Shown: positions 5,634-26,922 of the stretch, one piece after another
Layout: each line of letters begins with the position of its first letter
Numbering within the stretch: position 1 is the first letter of the stretch
From: a virus
Taxonomy: Duplodnaviria > Heunggongvirae > Uroviricota > Caudoviricetes
Length of the DNA: 64,000 nt
Virus record (IMG/VR): IMGVR_UViG_3300026478_000263
Strand: one strand, 5' to 3'
Notes under the pieces: model-generated
Seen by the model: only the letters and a program-made list of their open reading frames with translations
Databases searched by the model: none
What the model was told of the DNA's origin: nothing
Position numbers and translations under genes: made by a program

Positions 5634-5699
5634 ACTCGTTATGTAGGGTGCCCGGGTGGGGCCCTACTAAAATTCTTGCTTAATTAAAGGAGATATAAA

Positions 5700-6146: not shown

Positions 6147-6201
6147 AAAATCGGGGGCTCCGGCCCCCACTAATAAATACCATTAAGAATGGAGGGCCAA
6201 T

Positions 6202-7061: not shown

Positions 7062-7734
7062 AGTATGGGACACGCTGATTGAAGTTCAGCATCTTTTAGA
7101 AAGCAGTTTTAATGAAACAGGAACAGAAATCTTTGAACCGGGCATGGATCGCTTTAATCAGCCTGGTTGGGTTAATCGTGTTTGGACCAGTGGGTCTTAT
7201 CGCCGTGCTCACGTTGATGTTGTGGATGCTAGAGAAACCAAAGGACTCTGGATGATGCATTGTTGCATCTTCCCACACTTACACAATCCAGCACCAATTT
7301 ACGGCTTTGACGTTGTAGCAGGCAAGAATAAGATTACTGGCTGTTTTCATGATTACAGCAAAGCAGGAGATTCTAATCATCCTATGATGGAATGGTTTGC
7401 TGATTATGTTAAACGACTCGAATGGCGCAGAGAACGCCAACTACCAGAATGGGCTACCAACATATTCAGCCCTAGCATGGTAGCCGCAGGTAATGTGCAG
7501 AGCGAAGAAGAACTAGCGCAGATTATAGAAATGGCTAAAGATACACTGGCACATTACTTAGAAACTGTAGCAGAAACTAATAATACTACTGAAAATACCA
7601 CAGAAGCGCAGAACTACTACGCAATCAATCAAAAATGTAACCCACATACTCCACGTGTAATGGCTAGTTTAGGCTTAGATGAAGAGGATGTTAGGGTATT
7701 CATACAGGAATGTTTGTTCCCAGAAATTCGCTAA
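7054..7734 (+). CDS. ferredoxin-dependent bilin reductase (PcyX/PcyA/PebS family)
   Basis: FDBR family signature region (WMMHCCIFPH, DVVAGKNK); 226 aa; coupled to heme oxygenase. Confidence 0.75.
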   Translation: MSKVWDTLIEVQHLLESSFNETGTEIFEPGMDRFNQPGWVNRVWTSGSYRRAHVDVVDARETKGLWMMHCCIFPHLHNPAPIYGFDVVAGKNKITGCFHDYSKAGDSNHPMMEWFADYVKRLEWRRERQLPEWATNIFSPSMVAAGNVQSEEELAQIIEMAKDTLAHYLETVAETNNTTENTTEAQNYYAINQKCNPHTPRVMASLGLDEEDVRVFIQECLFPEIR

Positions 7735-7757: not shown

Positions 7758-8666
7758 ATGAGAGCAAAAGAATTCATCACAGAAGCAACCAATGCCGCAC
7801 AACAAGCCGCTATCGCTATTGCTAAAAAGAAAAAGCAAAATGTAAAAGAATTTGCGCCGGATAATAGTGGCGACGAAGAAGAAACATTACTCAAGTACGC
7901 TCGTATTTGGTACAATGGCGATGACGACATACAACAAAAAGTTGAAAAACTATTAAATCGTATGGGTTGGGAAATTGGCGAAATCGAATCAGAAGAAGGC
8001 GGCGCATTTGTTGTGCAGTCTGGCGATGAGCATGGTAAGAGTTATATTGGTTTTGCCCCAGAAGACTTAACTGAAGCCGCCATGGCGGAAGGTGTCGATA
8101 TTGGCCGAGAGTGGATGAGCGACACTGAATTGGATCAGTATGTGCCAGATCGCTTACAACAACAATGGCGTGAATTGTTGGGTTACGATCGCCATGGCAA
8201 TCCAAGTGCATTGTGGGCAAACTTAACAGGCGGATATGAACCGGATGTTAATGATCGTCAACATCGTGCCCTAATGGTTAAAGTGGCTAACAAATGGTTT
8301 GCGGCTAAGAAGATTCCTAATGTTAAATTCTTCAGTGTTAGAGATGCAGACGATGAATTAGAATGGTTAGTTCAAATTGGCCCAGAAGGTATGTCAGAAG
8401 ATTGGCAGAAGGTTAATAAGAAAGACAAAACCGATGGCATGAGCAGTAAAGCCGTTAAAGCATATCGTAGAGAACATCCTGGTAGTAAATTAAAAACAGC
8501 AGTCACTACACCTCCTAGCAAATTAAAGAAAGGATCTAAGGCAAGTAAGCGTAGATCAAGTTTTTGTGCTAGAAGTGATGGCCAAAAGAAAATGCACAAT
8601 ATTGATTGCACTAAGACACCAGACAAGGCAATCTGCAAAGCACGTAAACGTTGGAACTGTGAATGA
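7758..8666 (+). CDS. putative internal head protein with T4-like capsid-targeting N-terminus (MRAKEFI)
   Basis: N-terminus MRAKEFITEA resembles T4 IP capsid-targeting sequence MKTYQEFIAE; Cys/basic-rich C-terminus. Confidence 0.5.
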   Translation: MRAKEFITEATNAAQQAAIAIAKKKKQNVKEFAPDNSGDEEETLLKYARIWYNGDDDIQQKVEKLLNRMGWEIGEIESEEGGAFVVQSGDEHGKSYIGFAPEDLTEAAMAEGVDIGREWMSDTELDQYVPDRLQQQWRELLGYDRHGNPSALWANLTGGYEPDVNDRQHRALMVKVANKWFAAKKIPNVKFFSVRDADDELEWLVQIGPEGMSEDWQKVNKKDKTDGMSSKAVKAYRREHPGSKLKTAVTTPPSKLKKGSKASKRRSSFCARSDGQKKMHNIDCTKTPDKAICKARKRWNCE

Positions 8667-10216
8667 GAGCAAAAGAATTTATTTTATTTGAATCTGAAGG
8701 CGGCATGGCCCGCCGTGCAGAAGAAGCCGGCCGTGGCAAACGTGTAGCATTTAAAAATGCAGATGGAAATGTTATTCATATGATTGCATCTCAAGTGTTT
8801 CCACAAGACGTAGACAAGCGAGACAATTATCAAGAACTAGTTCCAGAGATTATGGACTATGTGAAGGCTAACAATGTAGCAGTATCTAACGCACTAACAC
8901 TTCCGCCAGTGGGCGGACTAAGCATACCTGAAAAAGCAGGTGCCGCATTAGTAATGATTTTTAAAGATGAAAAATCTAAAAAGAACATAGCATGGATCGC
9001 TCTTAAGCCTGCTAAGAAGCCAGGTGCTTATCCAATCTTCTTACAGACTAAACAGTTTTCAGACCTAACTGGTTATGTACAACTAAGCGGCAAAGCAGGA
9101 GAGGAAGATAAAATTTCTGGAGTACAACAACGTGCTCTAACTAATTTAAAACCTGTTGGAATTATTCCTACTAATACAACCATTGCTGTAGATGATATTC
9201 CTACACAAGTGCAAGGTTCTATTCAAGAGCGTGATGATCTAGCAGATGCTATTAAACAACAGGTAGTACAACTATTGCAGGCTGTTGCTTCTGGTAGCAG
9301 TAATCCTGTCCCCGGCGCCGGCGACTATGCTAAGAGTTACGAAATTGATTTAGGTGAAACAGCCGCACCAATTTCATTAATTAAGAAAAAGTTCTTAAGT
9401 GGTGCATGGCAACAGGCCGAAGCCGGAATGGGTTTGAAGTTTGAAGAAGCCGTTGGTGTAGAATTTCCAAACGATCCTGCTGAAAAACTATACGATAGTT
9501 ATTTGAAGTTTTCAGGTGATGTGAAGATTCGTGTAAGTTCCAAAGACAAGCAAGGCGGCGCAAAGGCATCTGTATCTGGTGTGGTAGACGATATAGCGGC
9601 ATACCCGCAACGTTATGAAGGATTGTTTGATCCTAAAGTCAACCCAGGCTTCCAAGAGCTACTAGACATTGTAAACATTATTAAAGACCCTGACATGAGT
9701 TATGTGGCTAAAAGCGCACAATGGAAACGAAATGGTTCTATTGCTGGTGCATTAGAATTAGGTGTCAAAGTAGGCATCATCGATGGTACACAAGCAGAAA
9801 AAATTATGGAAATCATTGACAGCGATCAGCCGCATGTTGATGACGAAACACTAGGCGACTTAAAAGGATTGTTAGTTTATAAAGGCACAGACGATTCGAC
9901 AAGACCAGACTACAGAATTGGTTGGCATTTATTAGCCGCAGTAGCAACTGGCACAGCAAATAAAGTAAACAAGGACTACAAGACAGATGCTTTCTTCAAA
10001 GCAGTTCTGGAACGTTCCAATATGTTACAAGTCAAAACTTCATTACAACAGAAGCCTACTAAGGACGCTGAAGGTAAACCATCAAATGGAGCATACTTCT
10101 CCAATTTTGAAGTTATCTATCCTCCAGTATTCACGGGCACAATTAAATTGGATGCCAGCAGTAACTTCTACGCTACAAGAAGACCAGTTGGTAAAATGGG
10201 TTTCGCAATCCGTTAA
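8663..10216 (+). CDS. putative internal head protein with T4-like capsid-targeting N-terminus (MRAKEFI)
   Basis: N-terminus MRAKEFILFE; paralogous N-terminus shared with 7758 and 17604 genes; 517 aa. Confidence 0.5.
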   Translation: MRAKEFILFESEGGMARRAEEAGRGKRVAFKNADGNVIHMIASQVFPQDVDKRDNYQELVPEIMDYVKANNVAVSNALTLPPVGGLSIPEKAGAALVMIFKDEKSKKNIAWIALKPAKKPGAYPIFLQTKQFSDLTGYVQLSGKAGEEDKISGVQQRALTNLKPVGIIPTNTTIAVDDIPTQVQGSIQERDDLADAIKQQVVQLLQAVASGSSNPVPGAGDYAKSYEIDLGETAAPISLIKKKFLSGAWQQAEAGMGLKFEEAVGVEFPNDPAEKLYDSYLKFSGDVKIRVSSKDKQGGAKASVSGVVDDIAAYPQRYEGLFDPKVNPGFQELLDIVNIIKDPDMSYVAKSAQWKRNGSIAGALELGVKVGIIDGTQAEKIMEIIDSDQPHVDDETLGDLKGLLVYKGTDDSTRPDYRIGWHLLAAVATGTANKVNKDYKTDAFFKAVLERSNMLQVKTSLQQKPTKDAEGKPSNGAYFSNFEVIYPPVFTGTIKLDASSNFYATRRPVGKMGFAIR

Positions 10217-10227: not shown

Positions 10228-10257
10228 TTGACAAATCTTACGAAGTTCATATATAAT
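10228..10257 (+). promoter_or_regulatory. sigma70-like promoter (TTGACA-17-ATATAA/TATAAT)
   Basis: consensus -35 and -10 with 17-18 bp spacer directly upstream of tRNA-Thr. Confidence 0.5.
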
Positions 10258-10266: not shown

Positions 10267-10342
10267 GCCCCTTTAGCTCATCTGGTAGAGCAACTGATTT
10301 GTAATCAGTAGGTGGTCTGTTCGAGTCGGACAAGGGGCACCA
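10267..10342 (+). tRNA. tRNA-Thr (anticodon TGT)
   Basis: cloverleaf with 7-bp acceptor, anticodon loop TTTGTAA, T-loop TTCGAGT, encoded CCA. Confidence 0.8.
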
Positions 10343-10364: not shown

Positions 10365-11054
10365 ATGTTTGGTGCAAGTTACACAGGTACTGGAATTTAC
10401 CGTTCAGCCGCACAGATCAATGAAGCAATGGGTCGTGTCTATGGACACATGAGCCTAGCAGTTCTTGTGTCTATGATTGTTAGTTACTTTGTAGGTACTA
10501 GCCCAGAATTGTTACAATTCTTCTTTACAGGTGTAATGAAGTGGATTGTAATTTTTGCACCACTGGTTGCTATCTTTGGTGTTAGCATGGTACTATCTAA
10601 TAACCCTAGTAAACAAGTCGCCCAACTATGCTTACATGGTTTTGCGGCATTAATGGGTTTGAGCTTTGCTACAATTTTTGCTATCTTTACCATGGGCAGT
10701 ATTGTTAGTGCGTTTATGGGTGCGGCGATCTTGTTTGGTACAATGAGCTTCTATGGATACTTTACAAAACGTAGTTTGGAAAGTCTTGGACAGTTTATGT
10801 TCATTGGATTGATTGCTATTGTTATTGCCAGTATTGTTAACATCTTTATTGGTAGTAGTGTAATGGCCATGGTTATCAGTGCATTAGCAATTATTATCTT
10901 TCTAGGATTAACTGCTTACGATACACAGCAAATACGAGAAATGGTTTCAATCGACTCTGATCCTGCAACCGAAGTAACAGGTGCATTAACACTATATATG
11001 GATTTTATTAATCTGTTCATTAATTTACTACAGTTGTTTGGTGATAGAAAATAA
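10365..11054 (+). CDS. Bax inhibitor-1/YccA family membrane protein (FtsH modulator)
   Basis: 7 predicted TM helices, 229 aa, C-terminal AYDTQQI...LYMDFINLF motif characteristic of the BI-1/YccA family. Confidence 0.8.
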   Translation: MFGASYTGTGIYRSAAQINEAMGRVYGHMSLAVLVSMIVSYFVGTSPELLQFFFTGVMKWIVIFAPLVAIFGVSMVLSNNPSKQVAQLCLHGFAALMGLSFATIFAIFTMGSIVSAFMGAAILFGTMSFYGYFTKRSLESLGQFMFIGLIAIVIASIVNIFIGSSVMAMVISALAIIIFLGLTAYDTQQIREMVSIDSDPATEVTGALTLYMDFINLFINLLQLFGDRK

Positions 11055-11075: not shown

Positions 11076-11105
11076 AAAAGGGCTCTTCGGAGCCCTTTTT
11101 TATTA
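11076..11105 (+). terminator. rho-independent terminator
   Basis: GGGCTCTTCGGAGCCC hairpin followed by TTTTTTATT. Confidence 0.7.
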
Positions 11106-11168: not shown

Positions 11169-11708
11169 ATGAAAAAACTATTATCACTTATAGCATTATT
11201 GCCTATGATTGTATCGGCAGCACCTTTAGGTGATTACACCTTTAAGAGTCCTGCCTTTAACGGCGTAGGTTACAGCAGTCATGTATTAACCATTGAGAAT
11301 CAAGAGCGCACACGTCAGAAAGAACGTGCAGATAAACTACAGGCTGAAATTGACAAAGCAGCCGCAGATAAGAAAAACACCAACCTTGCTAAGTTTGTTA
11401 GTAACTTAGAATCACGTATCTATGCACAGATTAGTCAGAACGTAGCAACCGCTATGTTTGCCAATAACAACTGTACAGCAAGTAGCAACACAAACTGTTC
11501 TGGCAACATTGACTTCCAGGGCAACTATATTAGTTGGGGCAGAGTTAGTAGTGCTAACGATGCTAACTGTTCAACAGCCTACGGATACTGCATTATGTTA
11601 AAGATTGCAGATCCTACAGCCACTAACCCAAGTACAGCATCATGCACAGACACTGGAATGAGTTGTGTGTATGTTCCATTAAGTTCATTCCAAATGCCGG
11701 GGAACTAA
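11169..11708 (+). CDS. csgF: CsgF-like curli assembly protein (secreted)
   Basis: signal peptide; YTFKSPAFNGVG resembles CsgF FQFRNPNFGG motif; downstream QISQNV segment resembles CsgF; directly upstream of csgG. Confidence 0.55.
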   Translation: MKKLLSLIALLPMIVSAAPLGDYTFKSPAFNGVGYSSHVLTIENQERTRQKERADKLQAEIDKAAADKKNTNLAKFVSNLESRIYAQISQNVATAMFANNNCTASSNTNCSGNIDFQGNYISWGRVSSANDANCSTAYGYCIMLKIADPTATNPSTASCTDTGMSCVYVPLSSFQMPGN

Positions 11709-11711
11709 GAC

Positions 11712-12881
11712 ATGAAAAAGACAATACTATCCCTAGCAGTTTTAACTATGCTTTCAGGTTGTGCTGTTATGCAGACAACTGGAGTACTAGACAAGAGTCC
11801 TGAAGTTACAGGGCAAATGACTAATGTTAAGAAAGAATTTGATACAATACCTAGTCCAATCGCTGGAAGACCACTAAGCGTGGCCGTTTATAGTTTTACT
11901 GATAAAACAGGTCAACGTAGACCGCAGGCAAACATTGCCAGTTTATCAACAGCAGTGACACAGGGTGCAGAAACATTCTTAATACAGGCATTACAAAATG
12001 TAGGACGCGGTCAATGGTTCGACGTTGTAGAACGTGTGGGCATTGATAACCTAACTAAAGAACGTTTAATTATTAGGCAAATGCGCGAAGCATATGAAGG
12101 TAAAGATGCTAAACCATTGCTACCAATGCAATTCGCTGGAATTATTGTAGAAGGCGGAATAGTAGGCTACGATCAAAGCACTACCAGCGGTGGTGTAGGT
12201 CAACGTATATTTGGCATAGGCAAAAATACACAGTGGAGCACTGATACAGTAACAGTAAGTTTACGAGCAGTTAGCGTAAACACTGGTAAGGTATTAGCCA
12301 CAGTGACAGTACAAAAGACTATCTTAAGTTCAGCAGACAGCGTATCTGCATTAAAATTCTTTGACGCAGGCACTAAGGCATTTGAAGCAGAAGCAGGTTT
12401 AACTATCAATGAACCTGGCACTTACGCTACAAAGGCAACTATTGAAATGGCAGTCGTAGAGTTAATTAAGGAAGGACAACGTAAAGGTGTATGGGAGTTT
12501 AAACCAGAATCCGCACCAGCGGCCAAGGCACCTGTACCAGCACCAGCGGCCCAGCCGGTAATTAGCTCTGAGATTAAAGAAGAAGTTAAAGTAGAGGAGA
12601 AGAAAGATGTCGTGGTTCAATCACAAACCAAATCCGAAACCGAAACCAAGGCCGTACCCAGTACCGCCGCAAAAGAACTAGAGAAGTTACCTACAGAAGC
12701 AATTCTAAAGGATGCTCAGTTTATATACAAGGAGCCAAACGAAAAGAGTCAAAGGACTTGGCAGTTTAAGCCAAATACACGAGTATTCATAACCGGGAGC
12801 GAAGGTGATTGGGTACAAGTGCAGGACGTAGAGAAGCGTAAAGGGTTTGTTAAAAAAGAAGTAGTTAACAAACAAAAATAA
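11712..12881 (+). CDS. csgG: CsgG curli secretion channel lipoprotein with C-terminal SH3b-like extension
   Basis: lipobox LSGC; long blocks nearly identical to E. coli CsgG (IIVEGGIVGYDQSTTSGGVGQRIFGIGKNTQW...LRAVSVNTGKVL...KTILS); extra Pro/Ala linker plus ~70 aa GDWVQVQ domain. Confidence 0.9.
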   Translation: MKKTILSLAVLTMLSGCAVMQTTGVLDKSPEVTGQMTNVKKEFDTIPSPIAGRPLSVAVYSFTDKTGQRRPQANIASLSTAVTQGAETFLIQALQNVGRGQWFDVVERVGIDNLTKERLIIRQMREAYEGKDAKPLLPMQFAGIIVEGGIVGYDQSTTSGGVGQRIFGIGKNTQWSTDTVTVSLRAVSVNTGKVLATVTVQKTILSSADSVSALKFFDAGTKAFEAEAGLTINEPGTYATKATIEMAVVELIKEGQRKGVWEFKPESAPAAKAPVPAPAAQPVISSEIKEEVKVEEKKDVVVQSQTKSETETKAVPSTAAKELEKLPTEAILKDAQFIYKEPNEKSQRTWQFKPNTRVFITGSEGDWVQVQDVEKRKGFVKKEVVNKQK

Positions 12882-12964
12882 GAAAGAGAGGTAGCACTTT
12901 AAATTTTTTAATGGTCTTAGACCAAGGAGCGAGTTAGGGAAGATAACCTAATTCTGTAAAAACG

Positions 12965-13939
12965 ATGCATAAGAGAATCACAGGCGCTGGTGGGTTGTCG
13001 AGAAAATTACTCACAATTCTGGTGTTGTCTGCAATGACAACATTGGGTTATGCGGCTGACAATAGCATTTACATTGATCAGTCCGGCGATAATAGTACTA
13101 TTACTATGACTCAAGACGGAGCAGGAAACAAAGTAAAGGGTATATTATTAAATGGCACAGCAGGTGGAACAACTGATCCTGCTAAACTAACTGGTGCCGC
13201 ACAGACTATCAACATTGAGCAAACAGGAGCAACTAACGTATTGGCGTTAGGTGTTAACTCAACACAAGGTGGTACTGTACAAGGTTATGCTAATATTGGT
13301 GTGAATTTAAATTACCAAGTAAGTGGTGGTGGAAACACAGGTTACATTAATATTAACAATAATGGTACAGGCACAGCCAGTGGTAACGTTGTTAGTTTTG
13401 TTCAAAGTGGCGGTAGTGCAACTACAACACTTAACATGACTGGTACAAGTAACCAATTAACTGTTGGAACTAGTGGTGGTGCTAACAACACATTTACAGG
13501 TACAATCAACGCTGATGAAACTGTAGCAACTGTTAGTCAAACAGGTGGCGGCGGCAACGCAACTACACTTAACATGACCGGAAACAAAGGTCAAGTTAGT
13601 CTAACAACTGTTGGTGCAACTAACACTACATCTGTAACACAGAGTGCATACGGTGTAACTGGTGCTCAAGCAATTATCAACATCACAGGTTCTGGTAATA
13701 CTACAGACGTAACACAAACTGGTGCGTACGATCACTATGCTAGTATTACTGTAACAGGCGGTAGCAATGGCATTACACTTGCACAAACAGGTGGATCTGC
13801 TACTGGACACAGCACAACGTTATCTGTAACAGGTAGTACTAATACTATTGGTATTACACAACAAGGATCAGTTAGCAATCTAACTAATCTTGCTATATCA
13901 GGAAGTGGCAACACTTACACTATTTTACAGAAAAACTAA
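12965..13939 (+). CDS. curlin-repeat (CsgA/CsgB-like) secreted protein
   Basis: signal peptide; many degenerate repeats of type xTQxGxxNxxxxxxxGxxN (e.g. VTQTGAYD..., ITQQGSVSN...) typical of curlin subunits; Gly/Thr/Asn/Gln-rich. Confidence 0.7.
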   Translation: MHKRITGAGGLSRKLLTILVLSAMTTLGYAADNSIYIDQSGDNSTITMTQDGAGNKVKGILLNGTAGGTTDPAKLTGAAQTINIEQTGATNVLALGVNSTQGGTVQGYANIGVNLNYQVSGGGNTGYININNNGTGTASGNVVSFVQSGGSATTTLNMTGTSNQLTVGTSGGANNTFTGTINADETVATVSQTGGGGNATTLNMTGNKGQVSLTTVGATNTTSVTQSAYGVTGAQAIINITGSGNTTDVTQTGAYDHYASITVTGGSNGITLAQTGGSATGHSTTLSVTGSTNTIGITQQGSVSNLTNLAISGSGNTYTILQKN

Positions 13940-13948
13940 GAGGGTTCC

Positions 13949-15055
13949 ATGAAATTATGGATGGTAGTATTATGCGTTCCGTTGCTGAGTACATCGTTGG
14001 CCTACGCCGCGATAGGCAAAGTAACGGAACAAATCAATACACCCCCGACTATCCAGAGACAGAATTCGACACTAACGGCGTCGAAAGGGACTGGAGTGGA
14101 AATGAACGATGCGATCAAGACCCAGCAGGGCAAGGTGGGGATAACATTTGAGGACGATACTAAAGTCCAAGTCAATGAAAATTCTAAACTTGTAATTGAT
14201 GATTTCGTTTATGATCCAAAAAGTAAGGCGGGTAAACTAGGTGCTAAGATTGCTCTTGGCACAGTTCGTTATGCGTCTGGACAGATTGCTAAGAATTCGC
14301 CTCAGAATGTGGCCCTTTCTACTCCTAGTGCTACTGTTGCTGTACGCGGTACTGACTTTACTGCCACTGTAGACGAGCTAGGCGAAAGTACAATTATTCT
14401 TTTACCTAGTTGTCCTAATGATAGACCAACACGCTCAGTTAGAGATATTGAAACTAACTGTAAGACTGGCAGTATTGAAGTTAGCAATGATGTAGGTACT
14501 GTAATACTAAATCAACCCTTCCAAGTAACTAAAGTTCAAAGTAGAACACAACCTCCTACACCGCCTAAAGTATTAAATCTAAGTGAAATGGCCATTGGCA
14601 ATATGTTAATTGTCAGTCCTCCGCGCGAAGTCAAACAAGCACAACAAGAACAACAGAGAACATTTAATGCTTTAGACTTTGACTTTTTAAAAGAGAAAGG
14701 TTTGGAGAATTATTTAGATATGCAGGCCAATATGATTTATGAAGATAAGTTAGCCAAAAACTTTTTGTCTAATGATTTCCTTGCTAACTTATTCGACATT
14801 GTGGGAAACATACTGGATCAAAAGTTTTTAGATCCTGTAGATCCTGTGCTACCAGACTATAAAAAGTCCAGTGGCATTATAGCCTACAAAGATGATATGA
14901 GTGTTGAACTCTGTCGCGACAACGGTGCTGACATACAATGTGTTAAAACACCACTCACACAAAACTCAACAATATTACAAACACAGGGCAATTTAGAATT
15001 TAAGAACAGAATAAATCAGGGAGGTAATACTATTATTACCTTGATACAAAAATGA
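13949..15055 (+). CDS. secreted hypothetical protein (curli-cluster associated)
   Basis: signal peptide; beta-rich; sits between curlin-repeat genes, ATGA overlap with downstream gene. Confidence 0.4.
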   Translation: MKLWMVVLCVPLLSTSLAYAAIGKVTEQINTPPTIQRQNSTLTASKGTGVEMNDAIKTQQGKVGITFEDDTKVQVNENSKLVIDDFVYDPKSKAGKLGAKIALGTVRYASGQIAKNSPQNVALSTPSATVAVRGTDFTATVDELGESTIILLPSCPNDRPTRSVRDIETNCKTGSIEVSNDVGTVILNQPFQVTKVQSRTQPPTPPKVLNLSEMAIGNMLIVSPPREVKQAQQEQQRTFNALDFDFLKEKGLENYLDMQANMIYEDKLAKNFLSNDFLANLFDIVGNILDQKFLDPVDPVLPDYKKSSGIIAYKDDMSVELCRDNGADIQCVKTPLTQNSTILQTQGNLEFKNRINQGGNTIITLIQK

Positions 15056-17445
15056 TAAAACGTTTATTACAGTTCCTTGTGTTTTTAACTGTGTGCATTA
15101 GCGCACATAGTCAGGCTGTGACTTATAATGCTATTGCTACTGCTTATGTTACTACTACAATTAGTCAACAAGTAGTGTTTGATAGTAATATGCAACAAGG
15201 CGGTACATTTACAATGAGTGTACTAGCACACAACGGCGGCGGCCGTGCAGGACAAAGTGATACGGCTAACGTAAAGATACAGTTCTATAACAGCAGTGGT
15301 GGATTAATCACTAGCGTAAACTCAACTAACTCTGCTAACTTACCAAACCCAAATGCTGTGTGTGGTAATCCTTGTATTGATACTGCGGTACCTTGGACTA
15401 CAGTAACTATCAGTGCAACGCTTACTGCGGCACAAGCAAGCCAAGTAGCCTATGCCACAGTCAGTATGTACGGTATTGATGGAAGTTACTGGGCAGGTGA
15501 TTATGGTCCTTGGTATCGTGCTCCTACATTCCAACTTAATGGCGGCGGCAACTTATTGTATAACCCGGAGTTTGGGCCTTATAATAATATAACAGCACAA
15601 GGTTGGGTATCAAATCCAGGGTTCGGTGCTTGTCAAGGTGCATGGGGCGGATCAAATGCCTGTATCGTTAACAGCGATGGAGTGCCTGGTTCGAGTACAG
15701 TTGGCTTAGTTGCTAACGCTAACGGTGGCGGCCCTAGTGCTACTGGTGGTACTACTAGTGGTACTGCTGGTGGATATAATAACACAATGTCAGTGACCAA
15801 TGCTGGCACGGGCGCAACTGCCGGTGCGGCTCCTGCTCCGACTCCTACAGTAACAGGAACTAGTGTAACTTATACAACTAGAACTGTGGTTAATGGTAAT
15901 ACAACTACTGTTTATCGCACACCTGTAACTACAACAACTTACAGCGACGGAACTAGCACAAGTACAAATGGTACTGAAGCAGTATATCAAACTAAGGTTG
16001 CGTCTAACGTAGTAACTACAAAAATTGTAAACGGTGTTCTGACAACAACTACAACACCAATTAATACAGTTACTACAACCGGCGTTAATGGCAGCACCAT
16101 AGAAGCAAACGGCACAGCAACAACTACAACACAAAACATACAGCAGGGATTAAACTATAAAGTCTACAAATTCGATCCTTACACTTATAACTGCGGTTGG
16201 TTAGGTTGTATTAAAAACTGGTTAGGGCCATATCGTGTACCTGATATGCCACCTGGTGGACAGCCTGTTAGTATTGGTACAACTAGTAACGGAGTTTATG
16301 TTCCGACTAACGGCAGTTTTCCAAATATGGACACTGGTACCTTAGTTAGATTCAACGGAACGATTACTGCTCCGACGACACAAAATTATCCTGCAGGTAC
16401 TGTATATAGATTATACTTCTATAGCAACAGCGATGACGGATTTGTTATGAGTGTAAACGGACAAACAGTTATCAACGATAGATCTACATTCCAACTTCAG
16501 AGTATAGGTGGCTATACAGCGTCTGGCTGGATAGACATAGTAGCAGGACAGACTTATAATTTTGAAGCATGGTACTGGAACGACACCGGCGGCTATGGAC
16601 TACGTTTTCAATGGGACTACGGTGCAGGCCGTATGAACGTACCTAACTCTGCATTTACTACAGGGTGGATTACTGAAACAAATACAATTGACACTAGTGG
16701 ATTTGTTTATTCTAACAGCGCAGTAGTTGACGTGTCGGGTACAACAGTTTTATTAGGACCAGTAGTTGAAGGTGGAACAATTACACAAACAAATGCGCCT
16801 GGTGATCAAGTTATAGGTAGCGGTGGCTCATACGTTCCTCCAGCAGATATAGATGTTAAACAAACTAGAATTAATACTTGGAACAACGGTACACAAAACT
16901 ACAATAACGAATTGTACATCACACAAACATACGGTACTAACAATAATGTAACTATTACACAAAGTGGTACTAAGAACAAAATCGAATTTACCTTAGAAGG
17001 AAACAACAATATTGTTAATAATACTCAAACTGGCAGTAACTACTTAAAGCAAGAAGTGCCTGGGTGGGGCAATAACATAACTACTAATCAGTCAAATGCT
17101 AGTGGTTCAAATTATGCTGAAACTAAAATACAAGGAAATGGTAATACTGTAAATCATACACAAACCGGTAATCACATATTGTTCAGTAAAGTTACAGGCG
17201 ATATTAATACTGTAAACACTACACAGTCTGGCGGTGCTGGCCATTTCGCTGATATTACACTAACAGGAAATAACAACTCAGCACTAGTGACACAAACAGG
17301 AAATACTGCTAACAGAGCAGTTATTGATGTAACTAACGCAGGTGGCCCAGCCAGTGTTGACCTGCAACAAACAGGCGGCAAATCATTTAGCATCATTCAA
17401 AGTTGTACAAATCCAGCGGGTTGTAGCACAGTTGTTCGCCAATAA
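15052..17445 (+). CDS. giant secreted Thr-rich protein with PA14-like domain and C-terminal curlin repeats
   Basis: signal peptide; Thr/Gly-rich low-complexity; PA14-like segment (GYGLRFQWDYGAG); C-terminal repeats VTITQSGTKN / NTTQSGGAGH / VTQTGNTAN of curlin type. Confidence 0.6.
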   Translation: MIKRLLQFLVFLTVCISAHSQAVTYNAIATAYVTTTISQQVVFDSNMQQGGTFTMSVLAHNGGGRAGQSDTANVKIQFYNSSGGLITSVNSTNSANLPNPNAVCGNPCIDTAVPWTTVTISATLTAAQASQVAYATVSMYGIDGSYWAGDYGPWYRAPTFQLNGGGNLLYNPEFGPYNNITAQGWVSNPGFGACQGAWGGSNACIVNSDGVPGSSTVGLVANANGGGPSATGGTTSGTAGGYNNTMSVTNAGTGATAGAAPAPTPTVTGTSVTYTTRTVVNGNTTTVYRTPVTTTTYSDGTSTSTNGTEAVYQTKVASNVVTTKIVNGVLTTTTTPINTVTTTGVNGSTIEANGTATTTTQNIQQGLNYKVYKFDPYTYNCGWLGCIKNWLGPYRVPDMPPGGQPVSIGTTSNGVYVPTNGSFPNMDTGTLVRFNGTITAPTTQNYPAGTVYRLYFYSNSDDGFVMSVNGQTVINDRSTFQLQSIGGYTASGWIDIVAGQTYNFEAWYWNDTGGYGLRFQWDYGAGRMNVPNSAFTTGWITETNTIDTSGFVYSNSAVVDVSGTTVLLGPVVEGGTITQTNAPGDQVIGSGGSYVPPADIDVKQTRINTWNNGTQNYNNELYITQTYGTNNNVTITQSGTKNKIEFTLEGNNNIVNNTQTGSNYLKQEVPGWGNNITTNQSNASGSNYAETKIQGNGNTVNHTQTGNHILFSKVTGDINTVNTTQSGGAGHFADITLTGNNNSALVTQTGNTANRAVIDVTNAGGPASVDLQQTGGKSFSIIQSCTNPAGCSTVVRQ

Positions 17446-17463: not shown

Positions 17464-17607
17464 ATGCTGAAAAACATCTTAATATTAGCAATTATTACAA
17501 CCTTAGCAGGCTGCGCCGGAATAGCATTTTGCGACAAAGACGGACGACCCAAGGGTTGCCACTCATGGGATCCTGCTACTCGAAACGGCGCGGCACCAAG
17601 ATCATGA
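17464..17607 (+). CDS. small lipoprotein (47 aa), not in ORF track
   Basis: ATG at 17464 encodes MLKNILILAIITTLAGCAG... with a classical lipobox; stop overlaps next gene start (ATGA). Confidence 0.3.
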   Translation: MLKNILILAIITTLAGCAGIAFCDKDGRPKGCHSWDPATRNGAAPRS

Positions 17608-18140
17608 GAGCAAAAGAATTTATAAAAGAAGCAGAAGCAAGTGACGCCGATTTAAAAGCAAGATATGGTGACTTCGATCCTGAAGATAAAATAATGCTTC
17701 CAACTACAAAATTAAGCAGAGAACCTGCAGCCACGCTTTGGACAGCATATGATGTAGTTAGAAATATTCTAGGTAGAGATAGAGTAACTGACGATGATGA
17801 CGAATTAGGTCCTGGAATGTATTATGTCTACCAGAGTAGCGGAGATCCAATGTTTAGGGATACAGGCGACGGCGTTGGCAGTATCAACTTACCAAATCTA
17901 GACAGCACCGCGGCACGAGACGTTGCTGTTGCGGCCCACGAAGCATATCACGCTTATGTACACGCTAAAAGTAAAGGCGGCTTTGCACACGCTAATGAAA
18001 AGATTATTAACAACTTAGCAGAAAAATGGTTGCGTAAACATTTATCAGGACAAGCCTTACATACAGCATTAGAACAAATTATAGGCAGTAGAATTAGTTA
18101 CGGCCGCAACCACTTACCAAAGCCAGGATTTAAAAAATGA
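17604..18140 (+). CDS. putative injected zinc metalloprotease with T4-like capsid-targeting N-terminus
   Basis: starts MRAKEFIKEAE (internal Met of track ORF 17460..18140); contains HEAYH (HExxH) motif. Confidence 0.5.
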   Translation: MRAKEFIKEAEASDADLKARYGDFDPEDKIMLPTTKLSREPAATLWTAYDVVRNILGRDRVTDDDDELGPGMYYVYQSSGDPMFRDTGDGVGSINLPNLDSTAARDVAVAAHEAYHAYVHAKSKGGFAHANEKIINNLAEKWLRKHLSGQALHTALEQIIGSRISYGRNHLPKPGFKK

Positions 18141-20188
18141 AAATACAATTCAAAAAAATACTAGTAAGTCCATGGACTGCTTTACTAACTCTAGCACTAG
18201 TTGTTGGTGTCAGAGTTGCAGATCCTACATTTGTTGAAAGCGTAAGACTACGTTATTTTGACACATTAATTACAAGTAAAGAAGTTACAGTTAACAACAT
18301 AGTTACTGTAAATATCGACGAAGCCACGTTAGACAAATATGGTCAGTGGCCCTTACCAAGAGCAGAATATGCTAAACTTGTGAAGGAACTATACCAAAGA
18401 AATGCAGGACTTGTTGTACTTAATGTTCTTATGCCAGAGACAGATCGTACTGGTGGAGATGGTGCGCTAGGACAAACTCTAAAAGAGTTCCCTGTAGTAC
18501 TAGGAAGTGCGCCAGCACAGAAAACAAAGAATACACCACGTGTTCCAGGATCGGCTGTACTAGGTCCAGAACATCTAGATCAAATTATTCAATACCCGGG
18601 ACTAATCGCCAACGTTCCTCAACTAGAACAAAATGCCGCAGGTGTTGGCATTACAGGAACACTTCCAGAAGTAGATGGTGTTAATCGCCGCATGCCGTTA
18701 ATTGTTACTGTAGACGGCAAATTATATCCAGCATTGAGTTTAGAGACACTTAGAGTCGCCGCAGGAGACTCTACCTTCCAAGTAAAACTTTTTGAAGGCG
18801 GCGTTGAGAAAATGCGTATTCCAAAGTTTGGTCCTATTGCTACAGATAGTTTAGGAAGAATTTGGATCGATTGGAGCCAAGAAGCTCATAGCGTTAGTGC
18901 TGTTAAACTTCCAAAAGATTTAGGTGGCGCCGTCGTTATTGTAGGTCCTACTGCCGCTGGTATTAGTAATCCGTTACCGACAAGCAAAGGTGCTGTATTT
19001 CCTCACGAAGTGCAGGCCGCAGTAATTGGTACAATGGTTAACGGCATTGTTATTCAACGTCCCGACTATGCCGACGGGGTTGAAATTTTAGCATTAGTAT
19101 CACTTGGCATATTATTAATTTTCTTATCGAGGTGGACTTATGTTGGCATTGGTGCTACTGTGGTTATTGTTGGTGCCATCGTTCCTGGTACTATCTACGC
19201 TTTCAATAATTGGCTCGTCTTGGGAGACGCGACTGCGATCGCGTTTGGCCTTATTATCGTTGCTCTTCATTGTTATGGCGTTAAGTTTATAAGCGAGTTT
19301 TTACAGAAACAGGCAATTAAGAAACAGTTCGCTGGATACTGTAGTAAGGAAGTAGTAGAAATGCTACAAAAAGATCCAGACCTAATCAAGCGTGGTGTGC
19401 GTAAAGACGTATCCGTTATGTTCAGTGACTTGCGTGGCTTTACACCCATTGGAGAACACTACGGTGATGATGTTGCTGGATTAGGCAAGTATATGAACGG
19501 TTACATGGATGCTATTAGTCAGCCTATCATGGACAACAAGGGTATGGTCATAAAGTATGTAGGTGACGCAAGTATGCACATACACGGTGCTCCGATTGAA
19601 GATCCTAATCATGCCCGTACTATTGTTGCTGTTGGTTTACAGATGTTAGATGCTGTTGATGAGTATACTAAACTAATGGAAGCACAAGGCTTACCACCAG
19701 CCGCAATGGGTTGGGGTTGTAACTCAGGTATTGGCTTTATTGGTGAGATGGGATCAACTGACAGACATAGTTACGACATCTTAGGTGACATGGTTTCAAC
19801 CGCCGCTCGTTTAGAAGCACGTTGTAAGGCCTATGGCGTGTTATGTATCATCGGTGCTGAAACTTACAACCGTACTAAAGATGACTTCTTCTATCTAATG
19901 CTAGATAACTTACAACCTAAAGGCAAAACTGTAGCAGACTTAATCTATACAGCATTAAGAACCAAAGGTGAAGATTACAGTAAAGATAAAGTACAGCACG
20001 AGTTGATGCATGCCTTGTATAAACAAAAGAAGTTCGACGAAGCAGCCGCTATGTGTAAAAAACTAAAAGGCAACTTTGGTGGACAAATGGACAAGTACTA
20101 CAAAATCTGGATTGAACGTTGCGAGTTTATGAAAGAACAGAACCTTCCAGATAATTGGAATGGTGAATTCATAGCACATGAAAAATAA
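18137..20188 (+). CDS. CHASE2 sensor domain / class III adenylate(guanylate) cyclase
   Basis: N-terminal TM plus periplasmic CHASE2-like domain and several TM helices; C-terminal cyclase motifs VSVMFSDLRGFT ... KYVGDASM. Confidence 0.8.
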   Translation: MKIQFKKILVSPWTALLTLALVVGVRVADPTFVESVRLRYFDTLITSKEVTVNNIVTVNIDEATLDKYGQWPLPRAEYAKLVKELYQRNAGLVVLNVLMPETDRTGGDGALGQTLKEFPVVLGSAPAQKTKNTPRVPGSAVLGPEHLDQIIQYPGLIANVPQLEQNAAGVGITGTLPEVDGVNRRMPLIVTVDGKLYPALSLETLRVAAGDSTFQVKLFEGGVEKMRIPKFGPIATDSLGRIWIDWSQEAHSVSAVKLPKDLGGAVVIVGPTAAGISNPLPTSKGAVFPHEVQAAVIGTMVNGIVIQRPDYADGVEILALVSLGILLIFLSRWTYVGIGATVVIVGAIVPGTIYAFNNWLVLGDATAIAFGLIIVALHCYGVKFISEFLQKQAIKKQFAGYCSKEVVEMLQKDPDLIKRGVRKDVSVMFSDLRGFTPIGEHYGDDVAGLGKYMNGYMDAISQPIMDNKGMVIKYVGDASMHIHGAPIEDPNHARTIVAVGLQMLDAVDEYTKLMEAQGLPPAAMGWGCNSGIGFIGEMGSTDRHSYDILGDMVSTAARLEARCKAYGVLCIIGAETYNRTKDDFFYLMLDNLQPKGKTVADLIYTALRTKGEDYSKDKVQHELMHALYKQKKFDEAAAMCKKLKGNFGGQMDKYYKIWIERCEFMKEQNLPDNWNGEFIAHEK

Positions 20189-20209: not shown

Positions 20210-20959
20210 GTGTACAATAGACAGATGTGTAGAGTTATATCTATATTGGTATTTTTTGCCTTTTTACATCATGGGCAAACAAGCGCCGCCACTGCCAAAC
20301 CTCTGTCTATCACCGCTCAGAGCTGGCTCGTGGCCGATGAATCCGGCAGAATTATTCAAAGCGAAAACATAGATCAACAGCGTAGTATTGCCAGCATTAC
20401 TAAACTAATGACGGCAATGGTTGTGTTAGATGCTAATCAAAACTTAGATGAACAAATCGGTAAGTATACCCGAGCCGAAACAATACAACTAGCATTAGTA
20501 CACAGCGACAACAAAGCGGCTGATCTACTGTGTCAATACTATCCTAATGGTAAGGATGCCTGTGTTAGAGCAATGAATACTAAAGCACATCTGTTAGGTA
20601 TGCACGACACAAAGTATGTCGAACCTACAGGGCTTAGTGTGTTTAATGTAAGCACAGCCACTGATTTAATTAAACTAGTTCTAGCGGCAAAGAACTACGC
20701 AGAGATTATTGAAGCATCACGCACACCGCAGGTTAAAATTAAGATAAAGAAAAAGTGGTTTATCTTTAATAATACTAATCCAATTATTGGCAAGCGTCAT
20801 GAATTTATTGTCAGCAAAACTGGCTACATAAGAGCCAGTGGAGGTTGCATAGTAATGATGTTGGATACAGAAATAGGACGCAGAATTGTAGTAGTACTAG
20901 GAAGTAAGAATACTAAGACACGTATTCCTGAAGCAGAGTTTATTGCTGTTAATTCCTAA
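20210..20959 (+). CDS. D-alanyl-D-alanine carboxypeptidase/endopeptidase (peptidase S11, PBP)
   Basis: signal peptide; SxxK (SITKLM), SxN (SDNKAAD) and KTG (SKTGYI) active-site motifs. Confidence 0.75.
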   Translation: MYNRQMCRVISILVFFAFLHHGQTSAATAKPLSITAQSWLVADESGRIIQSENIDQQRSIASITKLMTAMVVLDANQNLDEQIGKYTRAETIQLALVHSDNKAADLLCQYYPNGKDACVRAMNTKAHLLGMHDTKYVEPTGLSVFNVSTATDLIKLVLAAKNYAEIIEASRTPQVKIKIKKKWFIFNNTNPIIGKRHEFIVSKTGYIRASGGCIVMMLDTEIGRRIVVVLGSKNTKTRIPEAEFIAVNS

Positions 20960-26885: not shown

Positions 26886-26910
26886 AAGGGCCTTCGGGCC
26901 CTTTTTTATT
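26886..26910 (+). terminator. rho-independent terminator
   Basis: GGGCCTTCGGGCCC hairpin + TTTTTTATTTT; identical hairpin reused at 35323. Confidence 0.75.
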
Positions 26911-26922
26911 TTACCAAACACA

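Follow-up and report, generated by a model that had tools for sequence, protein, structure and literature searches.

A viral module of probable curli-type secretion and fibre formation, with a putative FecR-CHASE2 sensor pair, in an uncultured jumbo-type T4-like myovirus

The window analysed here, a 64,000-nt stretch of DNA, carries between positions 11169 and 17445 five plus-strand ORFs of 179, 389, 324, 368 and 797 aa, all of which were confirmed where the original prediction had placed them (Table 1). Each begins with a signal-type hydrophobic N-terminal segment, and the junctions are tight: two of them leave gaps of 3 and 9 nt, and a third is an overlap of 4 nt (ATGA). Chance does not explain this arrangement, for about 60 independent viral contigs show the genes in the same order. 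The first proposal ended the module at 17445, whereas it continues as far as a gene coding for a CHASE2/class III adenylate cyclase. The resulting order of CsgF, CsgG, curlin, FecR, curlin and cyclase is also that of the cultured phages HTVC008M and Melnitz, thereby bearing out the synteny that had been suggested as a check. A GC-rich hairpin followed by a T-run, located between a Bax1-I/YccA gene and csgF, is likely the upstream boundary of the transcription unit, as a consensus match only, terminator-like sites being no commoner in this region than in shuffled sequences.

Table 1. Features of the module and its flanks (positions in the 64,000-nt window).
Feature	Position	Strand	Details
Terminator-like GC-rich hairpin and T-run	11076..11099	+	10-bp stem, 5 GC pairs, tail TTATTATG
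CsgF-like secreted protein, 179 aa	11169..11708	+	Pfam CsgF 31.8 bits (cutoff 25.8); phrog_35372 1.5e-40
CsgG core, aa 1-265	11712..12506	+	Pfam CsgG 159 bits; phrog_20175 2.6e-90
CsgG C-terminal extension	12507..12881	+	Pro/Ala/Glu/Lys-rich linker of ~65 aa and bacterial SH3
SH3 domain of CsgG, aa 334-385	12711..12866	+	Pfam SH3_4 32 bits (cutoff 24.1), SH3_3 27 bits
Curlin-repeat protein, 324 aa	12965..13939	+	Curlin_rpt 20.4 bits, 4 stretches; NCBIfam CsgA 2e-5, CsgB 3.4e-5
FecR-domain periplasmic protein, 368 aa	13949..15055	+	Pfam FecR 37.6 bits; phrog_37870 3e-121, full length
Modular secreted protein, 797 aa	15052..17445	+	N-terminal signal peptide
Conserved N-terminal beta domain of the 797-aa protein, aa ~24-190	15121..15621	+	followed by disordered Gly/Thr linker
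Thr-rich beta-hairpin stalk, aa 265-360	15844..16131	+
PA14 lectin-type domain, aa ~365-560	16144..16731	+	followed by linker
Curlin beta-solenoid, about 8 repeats, aa 609-797	16876..17442	+
Cytoplasmic protein, 178 aa	17604..18140	+	between second curlin and cyclase; HExxH motif
CHASE2 sensor/class III adenylate cyclase, 683 aa	18137..20188	+	CHASE2 127.8 bits, Guanylate_cyc 52.1 bits; phrog_35576 2.5e-185
Secreted S11 D-Ala-D-Ala peptidase (PBP7/PbpG-like)	20225..20959	+	NCBIfam D-alanyl-D-alanine endopeptidase 8.4e-52

The first gene codes, as predicted, for a CsgF-like secreted protein and is preceded by a ribosome-binding site (GGGAG, 8 nt upstream). Its product comprises a signal peptide, the motifs F-K-x-P-x-F-x-G-x-G-Y and NLESRIYAQ, and a clade-specific C-terminal insertion with six Cys. 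The N-terminal motif region is the part of E. coli CsgF that plugs into the CsgG barrel, and F25, K26, P28, F30, G32 and G34 are invariant in the viral CsgF alignment. The family profile matches E. coli CsgF (6l7a_J) weakly (E = 0.079, positions 4-43).

The CsgG homologue with a Pro/Ala linker and an SH3b-like C-terminus was likewise recovered. Its core carries a lipobox (LSGC, Cys17) and is a predicted outer-membrane lipoprotein channel subunit, aa 8-265 matching the E. coli CsgG structures 3x2r/4uv3 (E = 6e-42). C17 and W261 are invariant among 18 viral CsgGs; W261 corresponds to E. coli W237, which lies in the CsgA-N6 recognition crevice (PMC6957492). At the constriction loop (AS[L/F]STAVTQG), E. 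coli residues Y51, N55 and F56 are replaced by Q, S and L. No CsgE, CsgC or CsgH homologue was found in the module and no CsgA-N22-type targeting segment is recognisable there, which, together with the divergent constriction, speaks against a curli-type secretion and fibre system. The SH3 tail was found in at least nine viral loci and in none of 80 bacterial CsgG loci, 78 of them genuine, and is absent from the CsgGs of HTVC008M and Melnitz; facing the periplasm, it would probably tether the channel to peptidoglycan. Viral CsgGs, including the carrier's, form a single clade (198/200 bootstraps), and the nearest bacterial relatives (39-51% identity) belong to Sphingomonadales, Caulobacterales and Rhodospirillales.

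Two curlin-repeat proteins follow, both anticipated by the original prediction. The 324-aa protein falls just below the Curlin_rpt cutoff of 20.7; nonetheless, most of its close homologues have a precomputed PF07012 match, and the curlin identity of both proteins is firm because their family profiles match the solved long-repeat CsgA fibre 8C50 (E = 3.4e-16 and, for the 797-aa family, 2.9e-6). E. coli CsgA (8enq) is matched by the 324-aa profile at E = 0.046. With a signal peptide, about 12 repeats of about 23-25 aa and no Cys, the 324-aa protein is a candidate major fibre subunit (CsgA/CsgB-like).

The 797-aa protein is indeed a Thr-rich (15.7%) fusion of PA14 and curlin. Curlin_rpt reached 21.5 bits with the full-length protein and 28.3 bits with its C-terminal piece. 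Its PA14 domain is sub-threshold in Pfam (19.3 vs 24) and was confirmed by structure, with an invariant Asp-Asp-Gly motif (D461-D462-G463). Four pairs of Cys are also conserved in the protein, and its domains are large and able to fold; should they fold or oxidise in the periplasm, a channel of ~1 nm could be jammed, an observation that weighs against export.

The product of the gene between the two curlins had been described as a secreted protein of unknown function. Secretion is supported by its signal-type segment, whereas its function is no longer without a clue, given the FecR domain at aa 55-147, which is followed by an uncharacterised C-terminal part of 220 aa. Neither an N-terminal anti-sigma domain nor an internal TM segment occurs in its sequence, and its predicted structure has a pLDDT of 42. 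Out of 8000 scored candidates in a search with this protein 7987 passed, and the best 120 listed were all at least 71% identical. The gene is present in all 34 viral loci with enough flank, and the cyclase gene in 30 of them. The cyclase consists of TM1, a periplasmic CHASE2 domain, about three TM helices (aa 310-386) and a cytoplasmic cyclase domain that aligns with CyaB and Cya2-type cyclases. It keeps the metal-binding Asp residues in FSDLRGFT and KYVGDAS, the adenine-specifying Lys of KYVGDAS and Asp of YDILG, and the Arg; in this clade the transition-state Asn is replaced by Ser, suggesting that activity may be low or altered. Judged from gene neighbourhood only, the most likely role for the FecR protein is that of a periplasmic partner to the CHASE2 sensor in the adjacent cyclase. 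A role as an iron regulator was considered and rejected; FecR with CHASE2 is a known bacterial sensor pair.

Two neighbouring genes are of doubtful membership. The 178-aa protein has no Pfam or PHROG match and no signal peptide, and occupies the same position in only 4 of the 34 viral loci. Its N-terminus (MRAKEFIKEA) resembles the T4 capsid targeting sequence (CTS), as in IpII (MKTYQEFIAE). Rather than a working part of the module, it is probably an insertion unrelated to it and a candidate for a head protein that is ejected. An S11 peptidase gene follows that of the cyclase in 9/34 loci, and the Pfam Peptidase_S11 domain was found in a contig identical to the carrier's. It is possibly a peptidoglycan-remodelling accessory of uncertain membership.

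The DNA of the window is clearly that of a phage, as it contains rIIA, RNA ligase and DNA ligase genes and a complement of 33 tRNAs, with almost all genes on one strand. The carrier, which also has a tmRNA and a GOLLD RNA, is an uncultured jumbo-type T4-like myovirus. It is not the pelagimyophage-like virus initially supposed: among cultured phages, the jumbo phage XacN1 (385 kb) has the closest rIIA (29.5% identity), and the type of the carrier's tmRNA points to a host that is not SAR11. The surroundings of the module (tRNAs, rIIA, ligases) are those of an early/auxiliary-type region rather than of a structural module.

On balance, we think that the module is probably a type VIII (curli) system for secretion and fibres, adapted to a virus and acting in the envelope of the infected cell, with a putative FecR-CHASE2 sensor pair. 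Sec-type signals on all products except the cyclase would direct them to the envelope or to export. Passing unfolded through CsgG-CsgF, curlins would leave across the outer membrane and form polymers at the cell surface, where the 797-aa protein, joining by its curlin end, would let the fibres show sugar-binding heads of a kind that phages can exchange (PA14, discoidin or none). As with flocculin or adhesin display, the infected cell might then stick to neighbouring cells, glycans or particles and/or shield its receptors, and the FecR-CHASE2 pair would link cAMP to a cue from the envelope or from outside the cell.

Other readings were weighed. In one, which we regard as unlikely, CsgG exports the curlin-repeat proteins, but these form no curli-type amyloid; as monomers or in loose association, the beta-solenoids would serve as adhesins or as shields that mask receptors and so exclude superinfection. 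It is quite unlikely that CsgG, with or without CsgF, is merely an outer-membrane pore that times lysis in the manner of a pinholin or secretin, or that lets small molecules in or out, the curlin-repeat genes being secondary or vestigial. This idea was put forward in PMC9004378 and is one option in PMC7029224 and PMC9599517; it agrees with the missing CsgE gate, with the frequent S11 peptidoglycan peptidase gene after the module, and with the lack of clumping reported by Buchholz et al. for Melnitz-infected OM43 cells (PMC9004378). However, curlin genes with intact signal peptides are kept in 32/34 loci, and the second curlin in most; purifying selection on the curlin families, which are large, is clear, the CsgF barrel-plug motif and the substrate-recognition Trp of CsgG are invariant, and a simple pore needs no lectin-bearing substrates. 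The original prediction also raised virion-associated fibres; in this reading the 797-aa protein would belong to the phage particle, as a structural fibre or a decoration, and would bind the host or glycans. This is very improbable: the cleavable Sec-type signal peptides would take both curlins out of the cytoplasm, where virions are assembled, and the gene lies amid those of periplasmic and outer-membrane proteins in an operon-like block of the early/auxiliary region. Finally, bacterial homologues exist for all components and two similar contigs sit in bacterial MAGs, yet an origin in a bacterial chromosome, or in a bacterial island wrongly joined to phage DNA during assembly, is scarcely credible, given that these "MAG" contigs bear T4 replication and tail genes, the window is phage-like throughout, the 797-aa protein is indexed in 67 collection blocks with a shared neighbourhood in the contigs read, relatives lie on viral contigs of 200-373 kb, and CsgG falls inside the viral clade.

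Our preferred reading, a viral curli-type system, has published precedents. The same six genes in the same order form the T8SS of HTVC008M (gp014-019) and Melnitz (gp99-104), analysed by Zaragoza-Solas 2020 (PMC7029224), Buchholz 2022 (PMC9004378) and Wittmers et al. 2022 (PMC9599517), the last explicitly describing the gene order; aggregation ("sibling capture") and superinfection defence were already proposed there. Their CsgG belongs to the same viral clade, CsgE is missing from both as well, and HTVC008M gp018 also combines PA14 and curlin. These are, however, Kyanoviridae phages of ~145 kb, protein identities are only 27-47%, and their second curlins have 441 and 338 aa, without the extra N-terminal domain and Thr-rich stalk; their CsgGs lack the linker and SH3b tail, and the gene with a CTS-like N-terminus inserted before the carrier's cyclase is a further difference. 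Podovirus versions have an upstream histidine kinase that the carrier lacks.

With the curli of E. coli and Salmonella (csgBAC/csgDEFG) the module shares the CsgG lipoprotein channel, the CsgF plug motif and two genes for Sec-dependent curlin-repeat subunits. It differs in gene order, in lacking CsgE, CsgC and CsgD, in its constriction (Q/S/L vs Y/N/F), in the peptidoglycan-binding-type tail of CsgG and in far longer subunits (about 12 and about 8 repeats vs 5), one of them fused to lectin domains; the FecR-CHASE2 cyclase pair stands in place of curli regulation. Alphaproteobacterial and other non-enteric curli loci hold the nearest cellular CsgG relatives, the long-repeat CsgA 8C50 is the best structural match, and 21 of the 78 genuine bacterial loci sampled have long multi-repeat curlins close by, whereas FecR or a CHASE2-type cyclase in the viral arrangement lies beside CsgG in none.

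Bacterial cassettes in which the gene for a secreted FecR-domain protein adjoins that for a membrane sensor with periplasmic CHASE2 include the Burkholderia BiofilmReg operon (PMC5192318), Campylobacterota CHASE2 adenylate-cyclase clusters (PMC9239204) and the S. meliloti CyaD1/Clr regulon (PMC5498481); the output is cAMP in two of the three, and one regulates biofilm formation. The carrier's pair differs in being split by a curlin gene inside a secretion operon on a virus, with no PDE, TPR protein or response regulator seen nearby. In carrying a PA14 fold on a stalk that is long and repetitive, the 797-aa protein recalls the adhesins Marinomonas MpIBP, LapA-type RTX adhesins, yeast Flo1/Flo5 and Candida Epa, which are displayed on the cell surface, bind sugars and mediate cell-cell or cell-surface adhesion. 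The same role is predicted for the 797-aa protein, with its invariant Asp-Asp-Gly and its putative sugar binding and Ca2+ site; its anchor is curlin amyloid repeats rather than RTX/T1SS or a GPI/cell-wall anchor.

The six-gene unit is a virus-specific combination spread among unrelated phage lineages. Since the literature already describes this viral module in marine SAR11 and OM43 phages, ours is a new carrier, not a new kind of system. New here are the virus-only SH3b tail on CsgG, the lectin cassette of the second curlin (PA14, discoidin or none) as one swappable between phages, the reading of FecR and CHASE2 as a known bacterial sensor pair, and the carrier itself, a jumbo-type myovirus, so far uncultured, whose RNA genes include 33 tRNAs, a tmRNA and a GOLLD RNA.

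All five plus-strand ORFs that the original prediction had grouped into a curli-like secretion and fibre unit were found at the coordinates it had assigned. They follow one another closely: two of the junctions are gaps of 3 and 9 nt, and one is a 4-nt overlap. While this five-gene span stood, its end at position 17445 did not, as the module reaches on to a gene coding for a CHASE2-domain cyclase, and a gene coding for a 178-aa protein is inserted between the 797-aa curlin gene and the cyclase gene. Searches with the profiles for CsgG, CsgF, curlin repeats and PA14 confirmed most of the domain calls, PA14 falling below threshold in Pfam. No csgE, csgC or csgD gene was found between positions 11169 and 20959, where all ORFs are otherwise assigned; most non-enteric curli loci and the pelagiphage modules also lack these three genes (PMC9599517). 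Our promoter scan detected no T4 late motif (TATAAATA) near the module and no enrichment of sigma-70-like sites in the module region (28 sites compared to 29.1 expected from shuffled sequences). A TTGCTC element spotted by eye upstream of csgF resembles a MotA box. Across the 12 kb scanned, a single site matches the sigma-70 consensus at 12/12 positions (TTGACA, 18 nt, TATAAT), just upstream of a tRNA-Thr gene and the adjoining gene for a Bax1-I/YccA-family membrane protein. Downstream of the cyclase gene lie genes for a secreted S11 D-Ala-D-Ala peptidase (also present in 9 of 34 related viral loci), which may assist the SH3b-tethered channel described below by remodelling peptidoglycan, and for a fatty-acid desaturase-like protein (8 of 34 loci).

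Coordinates of the module genes, of the modelled parts of the 797-aa protein and of neighbouring features
Feature	Position	Strand	Remarks
CsgF ORF	11169-11708	+	
CsgG ORF	11712-12881	+	
First curlin ORF (324 aa)	12965-13939	+	
FecR-domain ORF	13949-15055	+	
PA14/curlin ORF (797 aa)	15052-17445	+	
Cyclase ORF	18137-20188		Pfam domains CHASE2 and Guanylate_cyc
797-aa protein, N-terminal beta domain	aa 33-190		model, moderate confidence
797-aa protein, linker after N-terminal domain			model, disordered
797-aa protein, Thr-rich beta-hairpin stalk	aa 265-360		model, pLDDT about 90
797-aa protein, globular domain	aa 365-560		model, pLDDT 80-93
797-aa protein, C-terminal beta-solenoid	aa 609-797		model, pLDDT 72-91
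S11 peptidase gene	20225-20959	+	
Fatty-acid desaturase-like gene	20949-21653	-	
ClpP gene	23185-23748		
Host-like gene cluster with DnaK	3768-7734		
First MRAKEFI ORF	7758-8666	+	ends in DUF6321
Second MRAKEFI ORF	8663-10216	+	
Third MRAKEFI ORF	17604-18140	+	HExxH motif
Sigma-70 consensus promoter	10228-10257	+	
tRNA-Thr	10267-10342		
Bax1-I/YccA-family gene	10365-11054		
Permuted (two-piece) tmRNA	26466-26929	+	RF01850 129 bits, RF04321 138 bits
CUA-anticodon tRNA	32620-32693	+	ARAGORN 'Pyl', Rfam tRNA 38.4 bits, CCA end encoded
31-tRNA bank	37817-45473		
GOLLD RNA, full-length	41035-41498	+	Rfam RF02032, 207 bits, model 1-416
tRNA-Lys(CTT)	41098-41171		embedded in GOLLD RNA

The CsgG assignment was robust, the product scoring 159.1 bits against a Pfam cutoff of 20.8 and aligning over residues 8-265 to the solved E. 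coli CsgG structures 3x2r and 4uv3 (E = 6e-42). It begins with a lipoprotein signal containing a lipobox Cys (MKKTILSLAVLTMLSGC), and residues G16-C17-A18, which include the Cys of the lipobox (LSGC), are invariant in an alignment of 18 viral CsgGs (A2). The constriction loop motif TGQRR..AS[L/F]STAVTQG is conserved in viral CsgGs. At the positions of the E. coli constriction residues, which we take to be Y51, N55 and F56 (2014 structure), the window CsgG has Q, S and L; in other viral copies the third of these is F. The extra linker and SH3b-like C-terminal domain that had been predicted were also recovered: the linker is rich in Pro, Ala, Glu and Lys, and the tail matches SH3_4 over residues 334-385 (32 bits, cutoff 24.1) and SH3_3 with 27 bits at a cutoff of 27. 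At least 9 viral loci encode the linker and tail, which are missing from all 80 bacterial loci and from both cultured phages known to carry the module, the Pelagibacter phage HTVC008M and the Methylophilales/OM43 phage Melnitz. Since the C-terminus of CsgG is periplasmic in the established structure, we infer that the tail would tether the channel to peptidoglycan. Residue W261, invariant in A2, aligns with W237 of E. coli CsgG, the region of which forms the recognition crevice for the N-terminus (N6) of CsgA (PMC6957492).

The secreted protein encoded upstream of CsgG is CsgF-like, as proposed (Pfam CsgF, 31.8 bits, cutoff 25.8), and its HTVC008M orthologue scores 59.6 bits. A single-sequence search of the PDB with the window CsgF missed E. 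coli CsgF and returned nothing relevant; the family profile reached it weakly (E = 0.079), exactly over the N-terminal motif region. This motif, F25-K26-x-P28-x-F30-x-G32-x-G34(-Y), is invariant in 17 viral CsgFs and directly follows the signal peptide. The N-terminal ~35-36 residues of E. coli CsgF insert into the CsgG barrel (PMC6957492), and it is to this barrel-inserting N-terminus that the conserved viral motif corresponds.

The 324-aa product is a curlin-repeat protein, in agreement with the original prediction. It scored 20.4 bits with Curlin_rpt (cutoff 20.7), and its family profile matched 8C50, a solved long-repeat curlin fibre subunit, with an E-value of 3.4e-16, compared to 0.046 for E. 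coli CsgA. The protein contains about 12 repeats and a signal peptide and is devoid of Cys. For the 797-aa protein, Curlin_rpt gave 21.5 bits over the whole sequence and 28.3 bits on the C-terminal piece, and the profile matched 8C50 with an E-value of 2.9e-6. Both curlin subunits display the beta-solenoid curlin fold and carry signal peptides, and their mature N-termini (ADNSIY... and QAVTYN...) lack a clear match to GVVPQY, the N22/N6-type segment that targets substrates to CsgG. PHROGs has full-length families for the other four module proteins, CsgF, CsgG, FecR and the cyclase, and none for the two curlins.

We modelled the 797-aa protein from a 39-sequence alignment (mean pLDDT 72). PA14 was absent from a whole-protein Pfam scan and scored 19.3 bits (cutoff 24) on the sub-sequence alone, so that a structural test was needed; the model has a PA14 beta-barrel fold, which supports the predicted fusion of a PA14-like domain to C-terminal curlin repeats, the curlin end being established by profile. 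PA14 exceeds the Pfam cutoff in 4 of 36 members of the protein family and in HTVC008M gp018 (27.7 bits). Residues D461-D462-G463 of the PA14 domain are invariant and make up a candidate DcisD Ca2+-dependent sugar site. The N-terminal domain and curlin block are retained across homologues of the 797-aa protein, and the part between them is exchanged, consisting of the stalk plus PA14, an F5/8-type-C discoidin domain, the stalk only, or nothing. Four Cys pairs are conserved in the window protein, which also contains large domains able to fold.

The fourth protein, previously described as secreted and of unknown function, is indeed preceded by a signal peptide but contains a FecR domain (37.6 bits). 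Only the signal peptide lies ahead of this domain, with no anti-sigma domain and no internal transmembrane segment or membrane anchor, and genes for a sigma factor or a TonB receptor (the partners fecI and fecA) are missing from its vicinity; we therefore rejected a role as a FecR-type anti-sigma or iron-citrate regulator. The AF2 model of the FecR-like protein, built from 26 sequences of 82% mean identity (alignment A5), has a mean pLDDT of 42. A curlin-like repeat suspected at its C-terminus (…QGGNTIITLIQK), which looks similar to the C-termini of the curlins, was discarded, as hhalign gave a probability below 1% against both curlin families and Curlin_rpt did not match.

The cyclase is predicted to comprise a transmembrane helix, a periplasmic CHASE2 domain, about three further transmembrane helices and a cytoplasmic catalytic domain. 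It retains five of the six residues of what we take to be the catalytic hexad of class III cyclases (two metal Asp, a Lys and Asp/Thr specificity pair, Asn and Arg), namely both metal Asp, the adenine-specifying Lys/Asp and Arg, Asn being replaced by Ser (VSTAAR) in its clade; another viral cyclase clade retains Lys/Thr/Asn. In bacteria, genes for secreted FecR-domain proteins recur beside those for CHASE2 sensors: in a biofilm-regulating operon of Burkholderia (PMC5192318), in CHASE2 adenylate-cyclase clusters of Campylobacterota (PMC9239204) and in the CyaD/Clr regulon of S. meliloti (PMC5498481). Based on these pairings and on the topology and residues of the cyclase, the gene neighbourhood points to FecR and the cyclase as a putative envelope-sensing cAMP unit. 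The pairing suggests a means of control for the module, and this reading replaces the published "iron regulator" one.

The idea of a phage-borne curli unit is correct but already published, as three papers describe the module. Zaragoza-Solas et al. 2020 (PMC7029224) reported the "curli operon" of pelagimyophages and proposed "sibling capture", and Buchholz et al. 2022 (PMC9004378) proposed a pinholin-/secretin-like pore and did not observe clumping. For pelagiphages of podoviral and myoviral type, Wittmers et al. 2022 (PMC9599517) described a unit made up of CsgF, CsgG, CsgA/B, FecR, a further CsgA/B and an adenylate cyclase, reported the abundance and transcription of the module and the absence of CsgE, and hypothesized roles in superinfection defence, aggregation or import; the gene order of the window fits their definition of the viral T8SS module. 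Cassette swapping, PA14 and SH3 domains and the CHASE2 identity were not found in those phage-curli papers that were checked for them. What the window adds is a carrier of jumbo-type lineage, a CsgG with an SH3b tail, a lectin cassette that can be exchanged, and the reading of FecR as partner of the CHASE2 cyclase.

HTVC008M is annotated with CsgF, CsgG, a "curlin minor subunit", hypothetical proteins of 368 and 441 aa and an adenylate/guanylyl cyclase, the last three of which we identified as FecR, PA14 plus Curlin_rpt, and CHASE2 plus cyclase; the GenBank record of Melnitz annotates all six genes. The window shares the common order of these six genes and differs by its 178-aa gene before the cyclase. 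At the DNA level, the sole match of the module to cultured phages is a 340-bp stretch of CsgG in HTVC008M. The proposed synteny check bore the prediction out. A scan of IMG/VR gave 60 loci (CsgG identity 46-86%), and tblastn with the window proteins recovered this gene order in nearly all of them. In 34 loci the sequence continues for at least 9 kb past CsgG; every one of these has CsgF and FecR, 32 have the first curlin and 30 have the cyclase.

To place the window CsgG, we built a tree of the CsgG core by neighbour joining only (130 unique sequences, 215 columns), the bacteria being sampled from the 80 nearest loci. In 198 of 200 bootstraps, all 52 viral CsgGs, including those of the window, HTVC008M and Melnitz, were set apart from the 78 bacterial sequences, and in this tree the window falls in a 46-member subclade without HTVC008M and Melnitz. 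The bacterial CsgGs that come closest show 39-51% identity and belong mostly to Sphingomonadales and other Alphaproteobacteria. A bacterial source for the full six-gene unit was rejected: L094 (CAZOIZ010000007.1, 'Rhodobacterales MAG') was the only one of the 80 'bacterial' loci to have it, and the only one with the FecR-cyclase pair in the viral arrangement, and this contig also codes for a T4 sliding clamp, a clamp loader, CobS/CobT-type proteins and a tail lysozyme. Together with L065 (JADHSL010000125.1, 'Pirellulales MAG'), in which the viral curli module is accompanied by a homologue of the 517-aa protein of the window phage, it is probably a phage contig mis-binned into a MAG. Since L094 alone showed the pair, the joining of a T8SS to the FecR-CHASE2-cyclase pair is virus-specific within the sample of 80 nearest bacterial loci, in agreement with Wittmers et al.

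The window is phage DNA, with 33 tRNA genes and a tmRNA, nearly all genes on one strand, and genes for rIIA, a T4-type RNA ligase and a DNA ligase. Its closest cultured rIIA (29.5% identity) belongs to the 385-kb jumbo Xanthomonas phage XacN1, relatives of the module sit on viral contigs of 200-373 kb, and the carrier, judged by such affinities, is not a pelagimyophage. It is common, as the index of the assembly collection lists the identical 797-aa protein in 67 blocks. The tmRNA (ARAGORN tag ANASTFEYFTVEGFTADNGLVAA) matches the betaproteobacterial type best, which hints at a betaproteobacterial, probably freshwater, host, with Burkholderiales or Methylophilales as candidates; together with the distant jumbo-phage affinities, it argues against SAR11. 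DnaK was uninformative for lineage placement, the gene being host-like (68% to bacterial DnaK). It belongs to a cluster of host-like proteostasis and pigment genes upstream of the module that also codes for HSP20, ClpS, heme oxygenase and a ferredoxin-dependent bilin reductase, and a ClpP gene lies downstream of the module. DnaK keeps E. coli CsgA export-competent (PMC6123696), so its proximity to the curli genes may be no coincidence.

Three otherwise unrelated ORFs start with MRAKEFI(T/L/K)…, which resembles the capsid targeting sequence of T4 internal proteins (the IpII N-terminus was verified to be exactly MKTYQEFIAE), and also carry an (I/L)-x-E prohead-protease-type cleavage motif; their products are likely packaged in the capsid and ejected. 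The third, the 178-aa gene noted above, lies inside the curli module, also in comparison loci L002, L005, L009 and L010. A tRNA-Lys(CTT) is embedded in the GOLLD RNA, in the middle of the tRNA bank. Among 60 long plus-strand ORFs, 2 end in TAG, 41 in TAA and 17 in TGA, and the CUA-anticodon tRNA makes an amber suppressor or a stop-codon reassignment possible.

Homology and structure establish a channel with its adaptor, two substrates of curlin fold that carry signals for export, a lectin fold and a sensor cyclase, in a six-gene unit conserved across unrelated phages. We consider it reasonably probable that the module displays fibres: the curlins would be exported through CsgG-CsgF and polymerise at the cell surface, the lectin-bearing subunit would co-assemble into the fibres, the channel would be tethered on peptidoglycan and FecR would be coupled to CHASE2. 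Against fibre display, a viral curli fibre has never yet been observed, Melnitz infections proceeded without clumping (PMC9004378), CsgE is absent from the module, the curlins show no clear N22-type targeting signal, the constriction residues depart from those of E. coli, one catalytic residue of the cyclase is non-canonical, and the Cys pairs and foldable domains of the 797-aa protein could be hard to pass through a ~1-nm channel. A non-amyloid surface coat would do without the fibre and is unlikely. It is quite improbable that CsgG acts as a pore only, as the published pore proposal would have it, in a module that also encodes curlins with export signals. Virion association or a non-viral origin deserves very little credence.

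A fuller version of fibre display, possible though doubtful, is a virus-specific organelle in which peptidoglycan-tethered CsgG-CsgF would extrude amyloid fibres with interchangeable PA14 or discoidin heads under FecR-CHASE2-cAMP tuning, making virocells sticky. The sugar-binding heads would sit at the fibre tips or decorate the fibres, and the lectin cassette would set the adhesion target, be it sibling hosts, algal polysaccharide or particles. Very common jumbo/T4-like aquatic phages would in this way turn free-living cells into flocculin-like, glycan-binding 'virocells'. Phage-encoded curli systems are abundant: they are reported to account for ~0.1% of assembled viral proteins in GOV2.0 (Wittmers et al., PMC9599517), and in our search 7,987 of 8,000 scored FecR candidates passed.

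Besides small-genome marine pelagiphages, a widespread lineage of jumbo-type myoviruses carries the module. The lectin cassettes suggest a lead on the ligands of the fibres, the SH3b tail on the anchoring of the channel and FecR-CHASE2 on its control, and natural lectin-curlin fusions are relevant to engineers of curli-display materials. If fibres are made, virus-induced aggregation would bear on carbon export, phage-host encounter rates and superinfection.
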